Source of the DNA: Escherichia coli | Lineage (GTDB): Bacteria > Pseudomonadota > Gammaproteobacteria > Enterobacterales > Enterobacteriaceae | NCBI RefSeq assembly: GCF_003018235.1 | Contig: NZ_CP027437.1 | Direction: 5' to 3' (one strand) | DNA: 64,000 nucleotides | Shown here: piece by piece, positions 49,570 to 55,070 of the stretch | How the letters are laid out: each line of letters starts with the position of its first letter | Numbering within the stretch: the stretch's first letter is position 1 | Translations under genes and position numbers: made by a program | The notes under the pieces: generated by a model | The model's input: the letters and a program-made list of their open reading frames with translations, nothing else | The model's database searches: none | Told to the model about the DNA's origin: nothing

Positions 49570-50889
49570 ATGGATATCTGCTCCCGAAACGAGAAATTAG
49601 CGATTAGAAGACCAGCGATACTGGTTGCACTGGCACTTTTACTGTGTAGTTGTAAAAGCACGCCTCCAGAGTCCATGGTGACACCACCAGCGGGTTCAAA
49701 GCCACCAGCCACGACGCAACAATCGTCACAACCGATGCGTGGCATCTGGCTGGCCACGGTGTCTCGCCTCGACTGGCCACCGGTTTCCTCGATTAACATT
49801 AGTAACCCCACCAGCCGGGCCCGTGTACAACAACAGGCGATGATTGACAAACTGGATCATCTGCAACGTCTCGGCATAAACACGGTCTTTTTCCAGGTCA
49901 AGCCGGACGGTACCGCCCTGTGGCCATCAAAAATTTTGCCGTGGTCCGATCTTATGACCGGAAAGATTGGTGAAAATCCAGGTTACGATCCGCTGCAATT
50001 TATGCTCGACGAAGCCCACAAGCGTGGGATGAAAGTACACGCCTGGTTTAACCCCTATCGCGTATCGGTTAATACGAAGCCCGGTACTATCAGGGAACTG
50101 AATAGCACTCTGGCTCAACAACCAGCGAGCGTCTATGTGCAACACCGCGACTGGATCAGAACGTCCGGCGATCGCTTTGTCCTCGACCCGGGCATCCCTG
50201 AAGTTCAGGACTGGATCACATCAATAGTCGCGGAAGTGGTTTCCCGCTATCCGGTAGATGGCGTGCAGTTTGACGACTATTTCTATACTGAGTCACCGGG
50301 TTCACGGCTAAATGATAACGAAACGTACCGCAAATACGGAGGCGCATTTGCGTCAAAAGCAGACTGGCGGCGCAACAATACTCAGCAGTTAATTGCGAAG
50401 GTATCGCACACCATTAAAAGCATTAAGCCGGAAGTCGAATTTGGCGTTAGCCCGGCAGGCGTGTGGCGTAACCGATCACACGATCCGCTCGGTTCCGATA
50501 CCCGAGGCGCGGCAGCCTATGACGAATCCTACGCTGACACCCGTCGATGGGTGGAACAAGGATTGCTGGATTACATTGCTCCCCAAATTTACTGGCCGTT
50601 CTCACGGAGTGCCGCACGTTATGACGTTTTGGCAAAATGGTGGGCAGATGTCGTTAAACCGACCAGGACCCGCCTGTATATCGGTATCGCCTTCTATAAA
50701 GTGGGTGAACCTTCAAAGATAGAGCCAGACTGGATGATTAACGGCGGCGTACCGGAACTGAAAAAACAGCTCGATCTTAACGATGCCGTGCCAGAAATTA
50801 GCGGCACAATCTTGTTCCGTGAGGACTATCTGAATAAGCCACAGACTCAACAAGCGGTCAGCTATCTGCAAAGTCGTTGGGGCAGTTAA
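49570..50889 (+). CDS. yddW: Outer-membrane lipoprotein, glycoside-hydrolase-like (GH10-type)
   Basis: 439-aa ORF with lipoprotein signal (LALLLCSC); synteny between gadC and dosC. Confidence 0.85.
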   Translation: MDICSRNEKLAIRRPAILVALALLLCSCKSTPPESMVTPPAGSKPPATTQQSSQPMRGIWLATVSRLDWPPVSSINISNPTSRARVQQQAMIDKLDHLQRLGINTVFFQVKPDGTALWPSKILPWSDLMTGKIGENPGYDPLQFMLDEAHKRGMKVHAWFNPYRVSVNTKPGTIRELNSTLAQQPASVYVQHRDWIRTSGDRFVLDPGIPEVQDWITSIVAEVVSRYPVDGVQFDDYFYTESPGSRLNDNETYRKYGGAFASKADWRRNNTQQLIAKVSHTIKSIKPEVEFGVSPAGVWRNRSHDPLGSDTRGAAAYDESYADTRRWVEQGLLDYIAPQIYWPFSRSAARYDVLAKWWADVVKPTRTRLYIGIAFYKVGEPSKIEPDWMINGGVPELKKQLDLNDAVPEISGTILFREDYLNKPQTQQAVSYLQSRWGS

Positions 50890-50906
50890 ACTCCCATTCT
50901 TACTTT

Positions 50907-50940
50907 GTAACAAGCCGGTGCTTTCCCCCCGGCTTGTTAC
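50907..50940 (+). terminator. Terminator-like hairpin downstream of yddW
   Basis: GTAACAAGCCGG-(10 nt)-CCGGCTTGTTAC, perfect 12-bp stem; weak T-tract. Confidence 0.5.
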
Positions 50941-51264
50941 CCTCTTGAAATATCCCACTAGTAATCATGCTTACTTAAGTCAAATTAACTACGCAATTAA
51001 CCACACTTAGTTAAACAGTCATAAATCCCCTAATAAAAATGTATGAATATGAAAAAACATACGATATTCGCTGTCACCGAAAAATAATTACGATGGGCTA
51101 TACTCTTCTGAAGAACAGTAGCGTAGATTGAAACTGTCCTAAGTCGCTTATTTGTTTTCAGTATATCTTCATATTTCAGGAGAATATGGTGCAGTTAGTC
51201 GATCTCGCACGTTGCGTTTCGTTTTGATTCCGTCTGCTTTCCCAGCCTTATAAGGGTGTGAATT

Positions 51265-52647
51265 ATGGAGATGTATTTTAAAAGAATGAAAGATGAGTGG
51301 ACCGGGCTTGTCGAACAAGCAGATCCGCTCATTCGTGCTAAAGCCGCGGAAATTGCCGTTGCGCATGCCCATTATCTGAGTATTGAGTTTTACCGAATTG
51401 TCCGTATCGACCCGCATGCCGAAGAATTCTTGAGTAATGAACAAGTTGAGCGGCAGTTGAAAAGTGCGATGGAACGCTGGATTATTAACGTGCTTTCTGC
51501 CCAGGTTGACGATGTCGAAAGGCTAATACAAATCCAGCATACCGTTGCGGAAGTGCATGCCCGCATAGGAATTCCGGTAGAAATTGTCGAGATGGGGTTT
51601 CGGGTGCTGAAAAAAATCCTCTATCCAGTCATCTTCTCTTCGGATTATTCCGCCGCAGAAAAACTTCAGGTCTACCATTTCTCTATTAACAGTATTGATA
51701 TCGCTATGGAAGTGATGACCCGCGCGTTTACCTTTAGTGACAGTAGTGCCTCAAAGGAAGATGAAAACTATCGTATCTTCTCGTTACTGGAAAATGCCGA
51801 AGAAGAAAAAGAACGGCAAATAGCCTCATTACTTCCATGGGAAATAGATATTATCTATAAAGTCCTGCTGGATTCTGATTTAGGCAGTAGTTTGCCTTTA
51901 AGCCAGGCTGATTTTGGCCTGTGGTTTAACCATAAAGGGCGACATTATTTTAGCGGCATAGCCGAAGTGGGCCATATCTCCCGTCTGATTCAGGATTTTG
52001 ACGGTATTTTCAATCAAACCATGCGTAACACCAGGAATTTGAATAACAGAAGTTTACGGGTGAAATTTTTATTACAGATAAGAAATACCGTATCGCAAAT
52101 TATTACCTTGTTGCGTGAATTGTTTGAAGAAGTATCGCGCCACGAAGTCGGTATGGATGTACTGACGAAATTACTTAACCGCCGTTTCCTGCCGACGATC
52201 TTCAAACGCGAAATTGCCCATGCCAACCGGACCGGCACACCGCTGTCAGTGCTGATTATTGACGTTGATAAATTCAAAGAGATCAACGATACGTGGGGCC
52301 ATAACACTGGCGATGAAATTCTGCGTAAAGTCTCTCAGGCCTTTTATGACAACGTCCGCAGTAGTGATTATGTTTTCCGCTACGGTGGCGATGAATTTAT
52401 CATTGTTTTGACTGAAGCTTCTGAAAACGAAACGTTACGTACCGCAGAACGTATTCGCAGTCGGGTGGAGAAAACCAAACTGAAAGCCGCAAACGGCGAA
52501 GATATTGCCCTCTCACTTTCCATCAGTGCTGCCATGTTTAATGGTCATCCTGACTATGAGCGCCTCATTCAAATAGCCGATGAAGCTCTGTATATCGCCA
52601 AAAGACGAGGTAGAAACCGTGTTGAACTCTGGAAAGCCAGTCTTTAG
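51265..52647 (+). CDS. dosC: Globin-coupled oxygen-sensing diguanylate cyclase
   Basis: 460-aa ORF (MEMYFKRMKDEW...), globin domain plus GGDEF (RYGGDEF). Confidence 0.95.
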   Translation: MEMYFKRMKDEWTGLVEQADPLIRAKAAEIAVAHAHYLSIEFYRIVRIDPHAEEFLSNEQVERQLKSAMERWIINVLSAQVDDVERLIQIQHTVAEVHARIGIPVEIVEMGFRVLKKILYPVIFSSDYSAAEKLQVYHFSINSIDIAMEVMTRAFTFSDSSASKEDENYRIFSLLENAEEEKERQIASLLPWEIDIIYKVLLDSDLGSSLPLSQADFGLWFNHKGRHYFSGIAEVGHISRLIQDFDGIFNQTMRNTRNLNNRSLRVKFLLQIRNTVSQIITLLRELFEEVSRHEVGMDVLTKLLNRRFLPTIFKREIAHANRTGTPLSVLIIDVDKFKEINDTWGHNTGDEILRKVSQAFYDNVRSSDYVFRYGGDEFIIVLTEASENETLRTAERIRSRVEKTKLKAANGEDIALSLSISAAMFNGHPDYERLIQIADEALYIAKRRGRNRVELWKASL

Positions 52648-52733
52648 ATGCGCCAGGATGCAGAGGTAATCATGAAGCTAACCGATGCGGATAATGCCGC
52701 CGATGGCATTTTTTCCCCGCCCTTGAGCAAAAT

Positions 52734-55070
52734 ATGATGGGCGCGGTGTTAATTAACGAAAATGATGAAGTGATGTTTTTCAACCCCGCCGCAGAGAAGC
52801 TCTGGGGGTACAAACGTGAAGAAGTTATTGGCAATAACATTGATATGCTGATTCCGCGGGATTTGCGTCCCGCGCATCCTGAATACATCCGTCACAACCG
52901 TGAAGGCGGTAAAGCGCGCGTCGAGGGGATGAGTCGGGAGCTGCAGCTGGAGAAAAAAGACGGCAGTAAAATCTGGACCCGTTTTGCGCTATCGAAAGTG
53001 AGCGCCGAGGGTAAAATTTATTACCTGGCGCTGGTACGGGATGCCAGCGTAGAAATGGCGCAAAAAGAACAGACCCGACAATTGATTATTGCCGTTGACC
53101 ATCTCGACCGACCGGTGATTGTCCTCGATCCGGAACGCCATATTGTGCAGTGCAATCGCGCATTTACCGAAATGTTTGGTTACTGCATTAGCGAAGCCAG
53201 CGGTATGCAGCCCGATTCACTCCTTAACATTCCAGAATTCCCTGCTGATAACCGCATTCGTTTACAACAGTTGCTATGGAAAACCGCCCGCGATCAGGAC
53301 GAATTTCTGCTGTTGACGCGCACCGGTGAAAAAATCTGGATTAAAGCCTCTATCAGCCCGGTCTATGATGTGCTCGCGCATCTGCAGAACCTGGTAATGA
53401 CTTTCTCGGATATCACCGAAGAACGGCAAATCCGCCAGCTTGAAGGCAATATTCTCGCCGCCATGTGCAGCAGCCCGCCATTTCATGAAATGGGGGAAAT
53501 TATTTGTCGTAACATCGAATCTGTACTCAACGAATCGCATGTTTCGCTGTTCGCGCTGCGCAACGGGATGCCGATACACTGGGCGTCATCTTCGCACGGT
53601 GCAGAAGTTCAAAATGCGCAAAGCTGGTCAGCGACCATTCGTCAGCGTGATGGTGCGCCTGCGGGGATCCTGCAAATTAAAACCTCGTCAGGAGCAGAAA
53701 CCAGCGCCTTTATCGAACGCGTGGCAGATATCAGCCAGCATATGGCCGCGCTGGCGCTGGAACAGGAAAAAAGCCGTCAGCATATTGAACAACTCATCCA
53801 ATTTGATCCGATGACCGGTCTGCCAAATCGCAATAACCTGCACAATTACCTCGATGACCTGGTCGACAAAGCCGTCTCTCCGGTGGTCTATCTCATCGGT
53901 GTTGACCATATTCAGGATGTGATTGATAGCCTTGGCTATGCGTGGGCCGATCAGGCATTGCTGGAAGTAGTCAATCGCTTTCGTGAAAAACTCAAACCGG
54001 ATCAGTATCTCTGTCGTATCGAAGGTACGCAGTTTGTCCTCGTGAGCCTGGAAAACGACGTCAGTAACATAACCCAAATCGCCGATGAGCTACGGAATGT
54101 GGTCAGCAAGCCGATAATGATTGACGATAAACCATTCCCGCTCACCTTGAGCATTGGCATCAGCTACGACGTGGGTAAAAACCGCGATTACCTGCTCTCC
54201 ACTGCTCACAATGCAATGGATTATATTCGCAAGAATGGCGGTAACGGCTGGCAGTTCTTCAGCCCGGCGATGAACGAAATGGTAAAAGAGCGTTTGGTTT
54301 TAGGCGCGGCGCTGAAAGAAGCAATTAGCAATAACCAACTGAAACTGGTTTACCAGCCGCAAATCTTCGCAGAAACGGGTGAACTGTACGGCATCGAAGC
54401 CCTTGCTCGCTGGCACGATCCCCTGCATGGTCATGTGCCCCCTTCACGGTTTATTCCTCTCGCAGAAGAGATCGGTGAAATCGAAAACATTGGGCGCTGG
54501 GTCATCGCGGAAGCTTGTCGTCAGTTAGCAGAATGGCGTAGCCAGAATATTCATATCCCGGCGCTTTCCGTTAACTTGTCGGCGCTGCACTTTCGCAGTA
54601 ATCAACTGCCTAATCAGGTGTCTGATGCAATGCACGCCTGGGGTATTGACGGCCACCAGCTGACGGTGGAAATCACGGAAAGCATGATGATGGAACACGA
54701 TACCGAAATCTTTAAGCGCATTCAGATCCTGCGCGATATGGGCGTGGGTTTATCGGTAGATGATTTTGGCACGGGCTTTTCCGGATTATCCCGCTTAGTC
54801 AGTCTTCCGGTAACGGAAATCAAAATTGACAAAAGTTTTGTCGATCGTTGTCTGACCGAAAAACGCATCCTTGCCTTACTTGAAGCCATTACCAGCATTG
54901 GGCAAAGCCTTAATTTAACCGTCGTGGCGGAAGGCGTCGAAACCAAAGAGCAATTTGAGATGCTACGCAAGATCCACTGTCGCGTTATTCAGGGATATTT
55001 CTTTTCCCGCCCCCTGCCCGCCGAAGAAATTCCAGGCTGGATGAGCAGTGTGTTACCGCTGAAAATCTGA
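52734..55070 (+). CDS. dosP: Heme-PAS oxygen-sensing c-di-GMP phosphodiesterase; 5' end frame-disrupted relative to the expected N-terminus
   Basis: 778-aa ORF with PAS, degenerate GGDEF and EAL domains. An in-frame-expected N-terminal extension (ATG 52648 or 52672) is in the -1 frame here; see findings. Confidence 0.85.
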   Translation: MMGAVLINENDEVMFFNPAAEKLWGYKREEVIGNNIDMLIPRDLRPAHPEYIRHNREGGKARVEGMSRELQLEKKDGSKIWTRFALSKVSAEGKIYYLALVRDASVEMAQKEQTRQLIIAVDHLDRPVIVLDPERHIVQCNRAFTEMFGYCISEASGMQPDSLLNIPEFPADNRIRLQQLLWKTARDQDEFLLLTRTGEKIWIKASISPVYDVLAHLQNLVMTFSDITEERQIRQLEGNILAAMCSSPPFHEMGEIICRNIESVLNESHVSLFALRNGMPIHWASSSHGAEVQNAQSWSATIRQRDGAPAGILQIKTSSGAETSAFIERVADISQHMAALALEQEKSRQHIEQLIQFDPMTGLPNRNNLHNYLDDLVDKAVSPVVYLIGVDHIQDVIDSLGYAWADQALLEVVNRFREKLKPDQYLCRIEGTQFVLVSLENDVSNITQIADELRNVVSKPIMIDDKPFPLTLSIGISYDVGKNRDYLLSTAHNAMDYIRKNGGNGWQFFSPAMNEMVKERLVLGAALKEAISNNQLKLVYQPQIFAETGELYGIEALARWHDPLHGHVPPSRFIPLAEEIGEIENIGRWVIAEACRQLAEWRSQNIHIPALSVNLSALHFRSNQLPNQVSDAMHAWGIDGHQLTVEITESMMMEHDTEIFKRIQILRDMGVGLSVDDFGTGFSGLSRLVSLPVTEIKIDKSFVDRCLTEKRILALLEAITSIGQSLNLTVVAEGVETKEQFEMLRKIHCRVIQGYFFSRPLPAEEIPGWMSSVLPLKI

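Follow-up and report, generated by a model that had tools for sequence, protein, structure and literature searches.

The micro-ORF upstream of Escherichia coli dosC is yddY: a start site kept across Escherichia, a variable peptide and a possible role in cis

Short translated ORFs in the 5′ leaders of operons include the attenuation leader peptides (trpL, pheL, hisL, mgtL, rhoL, tnaC). Upstream ORFs of another kind, the erm- and cat-type leaders and coupled operon genes, unmask the start of a gene downstream. Start-stop and minimal ORFs have reportedly been found in E. coli by Meydan and colleagues in 2019 with retapamulin profiling. A further group, comprising MgrB, MgtS and PmrR, consists of small proteins induced through PhoQP.

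Here we analyzed a 13-codon ORF immediately upstream of dosC in a 64,000-nucleotide stretch of E. coli DNA (the window), which an initial annotation had put forward as a possible leader peptide or small protein affecting dosCP expression. The ORF, which we identify below as yddY, resembles the attenuation leader peptides in being a short translated ORF in an operon 5′ leader, although in this case the leader is a putative one, and rhoL was found by the low-Mg2+ screen that also yielded yddY (PMC11429745). It differs from them in that it has no regulatory-codon run, repeated codon class or known arrest motif, in that no terminator/antiterminator pair was detected in the region 50800–51400, where only a 4-bp hairpin with a U-rich tail is present, and in that the ORF is not conserved between species; yddY is not a classical attenuation leader peptide. 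It may work like the uORFs that unmask a downstream start. Folding predicts that the dosC start lies paired within a helix, the opposite strand of which borders the yddY ribosome-binding site; keeping the yddY start open frees the dosC AUG in silico, and in one common allele the yddY stop codon overlaps the dosC Shine-Dalgarno (SD) sequence. Unlike those systems, yddY shows neither a stalling signal nor covariation, and the masking is absent in the deeper Escherichia lineages. The likeness to minimal ORFs is confined to the leaders of Escherichia lineages other than E. coli (L004, L005, L006 and L012), where the SD is followed by ATG-GTG-NNN-TAA or, in E. albertii, by ATG-ATG-TAG, so that judging from these sequences only initiation could matter; the window allele, with its 13 codons, does not belong to this class. 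Like the PhoQP-induced small proteins, yddY is induced in low Mg2+ and is PhoQ-dependent, but unlike them YddY is not a membrane protein, has no phenotype, lacks a clear PhoP box and is not conserved.

The elements of the locus to which we refer are as follows.

51098–51104, + strand: candidate sigma-S-type −10 element CTATACT with C at −13, read from the sequence by eye and from its conservation
51145–51178, + strand: 5′ arm (anti-start segment) of a predicted long-range helix, from MFE and consensus folds
51178–51182, + strand: yddY Shine-Dalgarno sequence AGGAG, invariant in 11 Escherichia sequences
51186–51227, + strand: yddY coding sequence, 13 codons plus TGA, identical to the entry in Table 1 of VanOrsdel 2018 (b4746 / YP_009518783.1)
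51189–51191, + strand: in-frame GTG, candidate alternative yddY start with 6-nt SD spacing, a start-type codon in all five lineages
51192–51212, + strand: body of the yddY ORF (codons 3–9), a patch that is hypervariable between species in the alignment
51195–51197, + strand: yddY codon 4, TTA (Leu), aligned with TAA in non-coli Escherichia
51215–51224, + strand: tandem CGTTT ×2; loss of one copy gives a 20-aa variant ending at TAA 51251–51253 on the dosC SD
51252–51256, + strand: dosC Shine-Dalgarno sequence AAGGG, read from the sequence, with an unpaired probability of about 0.3
51259–51299, + strand: 3′ arm of the predicted helix, which spans the start codon of dosC and its first 12 codons
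51265–52647, + strand: dosC, encoding the 460-aa diguanylate cyclase DosC, the downstream gene by gene identification

The coordinates in the initial annotation proved exact when read against the sequence, with AGGAG at 51178–51182, ATG at 51186, GTG at 51189 and the end of the ORF at 51227, as did its gap of 37 nt to dosC (51228–51264, with the dosC ATG at 51265). The ORF reads ATG GTG CAG TTA GTC GAT CTC GCA CGT TGC GTT TCG TTT TGA, that is, 13 sense codons followed by a stop at 51225–51227, and its SD and ATG are separated by the three nucleotides AAT. The neighboring genes gadC, digH (yddW), dosC and dosP all lie on the + strand. Initiation at the in-frame GTG would have the more usual SD spacing of 6 nt rather than 3 nt and a slightly stronger anti-SD duplex (−7.4 kcal/mol, against −6.2 for the ATG), and the start-type character of this second codon is conserved, being GTG in E. 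coli and three other lineages and ATG in E. albertii.

It is beyond reasonable doubt that the micro-ORF is yddY (b4746), an already known gene. The MG1655 record NC_000913.3 annotates a CDS at 1567178–1567219 as yddY, b4746, YP_009518783.1, "protein YddY", and the peptide encoded by 51186–51224 is identical to this CDS and to the entry in Table 1 of VanOrsdel 2018. Its placement matches that in K-12, between digH (yddW) and dosC and on the same strand as dosC, and the two loci share the 13 amino acids, the SD and the 37-nt distance to dosC; the window ORF departs from K-12 only by a synonymous TCG/TCA difference. YddY was detected in LB with a chromosomal C-terminal SPA tag by immunoblotting (VanOrsdel 2018), and when YddY-SPA was blotted again it was among the least abundant small proteins (Weaver 2019). 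Retapamulin start-site mapping, which the initial annotation had proposed as a check, has been published and was positive for yddY in low Mg2+: by retapamulin ribosome profiling yddY was one of 17 sORFs induced under this condition (Vellappan 2024-25, PMC11429745). In the same study a region 200–500 bp upstream of yddY drove a PhoQ-dependent reporter, YddY was not a membrane protein, and neither its deletion nor its overexpression had an effect (PMC11429745). The micro-ORF is hence a genuine translated ORF, identical in peptide and context to a gene whose product has been detected. The 3-nt SD–ATG spacing that had led the initial annotation to call it weakly supported is indeed short.

Genomes annotated by PGAP omit yddY, among them K-12 HMS174 and a strain 100% identical to the window over a 441-nt query, and this omission accounts for the rediscovery of the gene from sequence. 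As yddY is named, annotated in MG1655 and experimentally detected, finding it has little discovery value in itself; candidates from sequence scans should be checked against the curated list of K-12 small proteins, or yddY will keep being rediscovered.

Several features of the surrounding sequence were recorded in passing. About 20 nt past the digH stop, at 50908–50939, lies an 11-bp stem (TAACAAGCCGG / CCGGCTTGTTA) with a 10-nt loop and no T-run, the core of which other Escherichia retain; it was not called as a terminator, but may mark the end of the digH transcript or stabilize it. The digH–yddY spacer contains a 12-nt insertion or duplication at 50984–50995 (AATTAACTACGC) that is present in the window and the MS57-2 type and not in K-12, and pairwise variation in the 5′ half of this spacer (about 6%) is far higher than in the half containing the promoter and leader. 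Downstream, a T-run in dosP (52709–52714) has six T in the window against seven in GF131, K-12 and MS57-2. The window dosP is consequently frameshifted after codon 13 with an in-frame TGA at 52735–52737 (region 52672–52737), and a 778-aa ORF restarts at an ATG at 52734. This could be a homopolymer sequencing error, or else a genuine pseudogene or N-terminal truncation.

An ORF of this size is no surprise by chance. Random 375-nt spacers of matched composition contain an ORF of ≥13 codons opening with ATG or GTG in 96.5% of cases, with a mean of 2.6 such ORFs each, and the digH–dosC spacer itself holds three further ORFs of that length class besides yddY. As nearly all random spacers hold such ORFs, length is uninformative as evidence. 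An AGGAG or GGAGG located 3–16 nt before such an ORF is found in only 1.0% of the random spacers; across the 64-kb window there are 23 combinations of AGGAG with a start codon, 10 of which open ORFs of 10–50 codons. Taken by itself, the sequence would make a moderate case for the yddY ORF, and we accept the ORF as real because of its published experimental detection and its annotation in NC_000913.3.

In order to compare the leader between species, DosC was used as the query in a scan of one genome per species, which yielded dosC loci in four non-coli Escherichia lineages (L004, E. whittamii L005, E69 L006 and E. albertii L012) and in five other genera (Citrobacter, Kluyvera, Phytobacter, Enterobacter and Trabulsiella). 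The leader aligns well within Escherichia, and the stretch from CTATACT (51098–51104) through AGGAGAATATG(G/A)TG is nearly invariant, the sole change in AGGAGAATATG(G/A)TG across the genus being one G/A. What follows the start differs: ATG GTG CCG TAA (MVP*) in L004, ATG GTG CTG TAA (MVL*) in E. whittamii, ATG GTG CGA TAA (MVR*) in E69 and ATG ATG TAG (MM*) in E. albertii. The initial annotation had made its proposal depend on conservation of the reading frame among enterobacterial dosC leaders, and this conservation is not found. The frame is cut to 2–3 codons in all four of the non-coli Escherichia lineages, has no counterpart in the other genera and differs in length between E. coli strains, so that among the lineages compared the 13-codon frame belongs to E. 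coli only. Since the alignment shows TAA in all four outgroup lineages where E. coli has TTA, it is most simply read as an ancestral ORF of 2–3 codons that grew to 13 codons when TAA became TTA at codon 4 on the E. coli branch.

The body of the ORF is the most variable patch of the leader. Within codons 3–9, 15 of 22 alignment columns vary, compared with 31 of 123 in the remaining non-coding leader (Fisher p=0.00025), and the patch measures 20, 21 or 22 nt depending on the species, with indels that are not multiples of three. The block 3′ of this patch, from GTTGCGTTTCGTTTT to GATTCCGTCTG, is conserved even where it lies outside any ORF, and the conservation of codons 9–13 in E. coli is therefore attributed to non-coding constraint. 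In the SD–start block just one of 14 columns is variable, a rate not significantly below that of the leader background (p=0.19). Together, these alignments suggest that the conserved unit is the yddY start site, comprising the ribosome-binding site and the first two codons, and not the peptide.

Outside Escherichia the dosC leaders of the five genera are non-homologous to that of E. coli, and no convincing SD-led uORF was found in them. In Enterobacter (L013, L014, L015 and L017) an ATG-TAG start-stop with a weak SD is common to the leaders about 121–124 nt upstream of dosC; it was rejected as a uORF since it sits inside a −10-like CATAAT / CATAATGTAGCA and is more likely a promoter element. 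A separate match came from a 398-bp contig of 0.9x coverage in an Oceanospirillum linum assembly (L029, NZ_MTSD02000211.1) that is 99% identical to K-12 yddY-dosC and is almost certainly a contamination of that assembly.

Variation within E. coli was surveyed with a 90-nt query across yddY, which matched 5,401 records; representatives of each identity class were examined, and genome counts were made for two exact alleles. Most E. coli genomes encode the 13-aa product, and the window, K-12, BL21, GF131, E2863 and MB20 all carry the canonical peptide with only the synonymous changes TCG/TCA and TGC/TGT; O157:H7 has the substitution C10R. In E. coli W and its relatives one CGTTT copy is lost, which exchanges the last two residues for a 9-residue tail and produces a 20-aa YddY whose stop overlaps the dosC SD. 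Exact copies of this allele were counted in 1,173 E. coli genomes (about 22%). Among the roughly 5,400 complete E. coli genomes, about 1,050 (about 19%) have lost most of dosC; that strains often lack dosC has been reported before (PMC5635171). The deletions correspond to 51224–51905 and 51953–52482 of the window and leave a 47-nt island between them (L002, L090, L091 and L092). The left junction falls at the 3′ end of yddY, with the sequences diverging from codon 12. In these genomes the ORF beginning at the yddY start runs through 57 codons, in a frame other than that of the dosC remnant, and dosP, further downstream, is intact. The dosC-deleted lineage also carries V5A, D6N and L7P, and in strain SF-468 the SD is mutated to AGGAA, whereas codons 3–9 are invariant in the eight dosC-positive strains examined. 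This pattern of relaxed constraint is suggestive, but with only four sequences against eight we do not rely on it. In strain WL297 (L087) the ATGGTG reads ATGTG and the downstream T-run has an extra T, giving a 3-codon MCS*; these paired homopolymer changes are possibly assembly errors.

Since the frame is absent from the sister species and the length of YddY differs in roughly 40% of E. coli genomes, a sequence-specific function of YddY is unlikely, and the lack of conservation of the frame likewise makes a sequence-specific leader peptide or a trans-acting protein unlikely. The peptide sequence is probably not the functional unit. A variable and apparently young peptide agrees with the published absence of a phenotype.

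The position of yddY relative to the transcript was then considered. Transcription would start near 51111, about 75 nt upstream of yddY, which would place yddY in the 5′ leader of dosCP. A C at position −13 is a feature of the sigma-S consensus, applied here to GGGCTATACT, and GATGGGCTATACTCTTC shows no variation among the Escherichia lineages other than a single G/A change. Scans of 50800–51400 for sigma-70 promoters and intrinsic terminators found nothing, and because the promoter scan was negative the promoter is proposed from the sigma-S-type −10 read by eye and from its conservation. An Rfam scan of 50500–51600 at E≤10 returned only chance-level matches to unrelated families. The literature describes dosCP as an operon under RpoS control and provides no base-resolution transcription start site for dosC/yddV; the sigma-holoenzyme peaks known from genomic SELEX, close to the spacer and within yddW, are approximate in position.

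Of the PhoP-box-like matches in the spacer the best, GGATTTATGACTGTTTA (51012–51028, − strand), has two mismatches relative to (T/G)GTTTA-N5-(T/G)GTTTA; it lies about 90 nt upstream of the putative transcription start in a segment that is not conserved outside E. coli, and matches across the window (199, with 167 expected) are near background. IraM is known to stabilize RpoS under Mg2+ starvation via PhoPQ (PMC10948607). Given this link and the background level of PhoP boxes in the spacer, the PhoQ dependence of yddY is probably indirect, running from PhoP through IraM and RpoS stabilization to a sigma-S promoter common to dosCP. CsrA, suggested by GGA motifs within the SD of yddY and at the start of dosC, is a candidate regulator only, the sole support for this idea being the reported increase of yddV mRNA in a csrA mutant.

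Folding of 51111–51300 gave a structure of −48.9 kcal/mol (z=−2.5) in which a predicted helix crosses the dosC AUG with a 14-bp run (51160–51173 / 51264–51277) and the yddY SD pairs with 51238–51242. The predicted unpaired probability of the dosC AUG is about 0.001 and rises to 0.63 if 51171–51201 is kept unpaired, as under a ribosome initiating on yddY; keeping unpaired the positions that a terminating ribosome would occupy had no effect on the dosC AUG in silico. Of random 34-mers taken from the window, 0.03% match the duplex energy of the two arms (−25.4 kcal/mol), but for the start regions of other genes a partner of comparable strength occurs in the gene's own leader in 7% of cases; among 37 control genes, 3% show masking as strong as that of dosC. 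The helix is retained in the consensus fold, with 97.7% pairing in 11 sequences against 43–58% in slid registers. Covariation was uninformative, with 24 of 32 pairs invariant, no compensatory pair and a covariation term of +1.24, and because the 3′ arm is dosC coding sequence the pairing could reflect conservation alone. Strong masking of the dosC AUG is a prediction for E. coli, L004 and E. whittamii alone; E69 (0.42), E. albertii (0.23) and the other genera are not predicted to have it. The helix does not explain why SD and ATG are retained throughout the genus, since E69 and E. albertii keep both without the masking.

The reading we lean towards, without holding it to be established, is that yddY is a weakly expressed ORF in the putative dosCP leader that acts in cis. 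Ribosomes loading at the yddY start would exert the effect, and the peptide would have no sequence-specific function. In the proposed mechanism 51145–51178 would pair with 51259–51299 and so mask the dosC AUG, and a ribosome initiating on yddY would open the helix and allow dosC to be translated; in the W-type allele the end of the ORF on the dosC SD would add direct coupling by termination and reinitiation. A role of yddY in cis in dosCP expression is plausible from these models, but no more than that, given the lack of covariation and of masking in E. albertii. That opening of the helix by a yddY-initiating ribosome frees the dosC AUG in E. coli is a more doubtful proposition. The main functional study of yddY nowhere mentions dosC (PMC11429745), and we found no experiment in the literature connecting yddY with dosC expression.

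The strongest alternative, which we regard as a serious though tentative one, is that yddY is a functionless by-product: the leader would be conserved for other reasons (promoter-proximal elements, RNA structure, or a site for a regulator or sRNA), and a fortuitous SD and ATG would be translated. Consistent with this are the low abundance of YddY and the absence of a phenotype on deletion or overexpression, the unconserved and length-variable peptide, the conservation of the SD–start block at no more than the level of the leader, the chance expectation of short ORFs and the other genera without a uORF. It accounts less well for the retention of a consensus AGGAG and two consecutive start-type codons in five Escherichia lineages, where the one G-to-A change turns GTG into ATG, another start codon, for the rarity of such an SD-led ORF in random spacers (1%) and for the regulated rather than constitutive expression of yddY; moreover, where a leader is structured, any ribosome translating it would probably exert some effect in cis.

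Ribosomes on yddY might also act in cis through the fate of the transcript, by shielding the leader from Rho or RNase E or by blocking attenuation at a weak hairpin and U-tract (51206–51216 followed by UUUCGUUUUGAUU). Inside yddY there is indeed a small CGCA/UGCG hairpin with a U-rich block, conserved in the genus, after it, the 2–3-codon ORFs are compatible with such a mechanism in that their terminating ribosome reaches roughly 51210, and the mechanism is independent of the helix missing in E. albertii. Nevertheless, no intrinsic terminator was called, the stem has only 4 bp, and 5 nt of the U-rich block are deleted in 22% of genomes, and we consider this route improbable.

That the 13-aa YddY acts in trans, binding or modulating a target under Mg2+ limitation or in stationary phase as MgrB, MgtS and AcrZ do, is very unlikely: the tagged protein accumulates, is induced alongside other PhoQP-dependent small proteins and has codons 3–9 invariant in the eight dosC-positive strains, with V5A, D6N and L7P only in the dosC-deleted lineage, but the frame is missing from every non-coli Escherichia lineage, about 22% of genomes have an altered tail and about 19% the 57-codon fusion, O157:H7 has C10R, the product is not a membrane protein and has no phenotype, and its 3′ codons belong to a stretch that is kept as non-coding sequence in species whose ORF does not reach it.

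Returning to the reading in which yddY acts in cis from its start site, a broader version can be put forward, which taken as a whole is rather unlikely: a minimal uORF conserved in the genus, consisting of an SD and one to three codons, would gate dosCP, and in E. coli the TAA-to-TTA change would have made a 13-aa peptide de novo, still changing in length (13, 20 and 57 codons), coincident with a new helix masking dosC. What appears modestly new in the present analysis is the evolutionary interpretation, with a conserved start and a young, length-polymorphic peptide, together with the candidate masking helix. If the broader version is true, it would add a translational layer to the oxygen-sensing control of c-di-GMP and would provide a dated case of the birth of a micro-protein from a regulatory start site. 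For E. coli small proteins without a phenotype, yddY offers context, as a gene whose start is kept, whose peptide is young and whose ORF in one fifth of strains is fused through a deletion of dosC.
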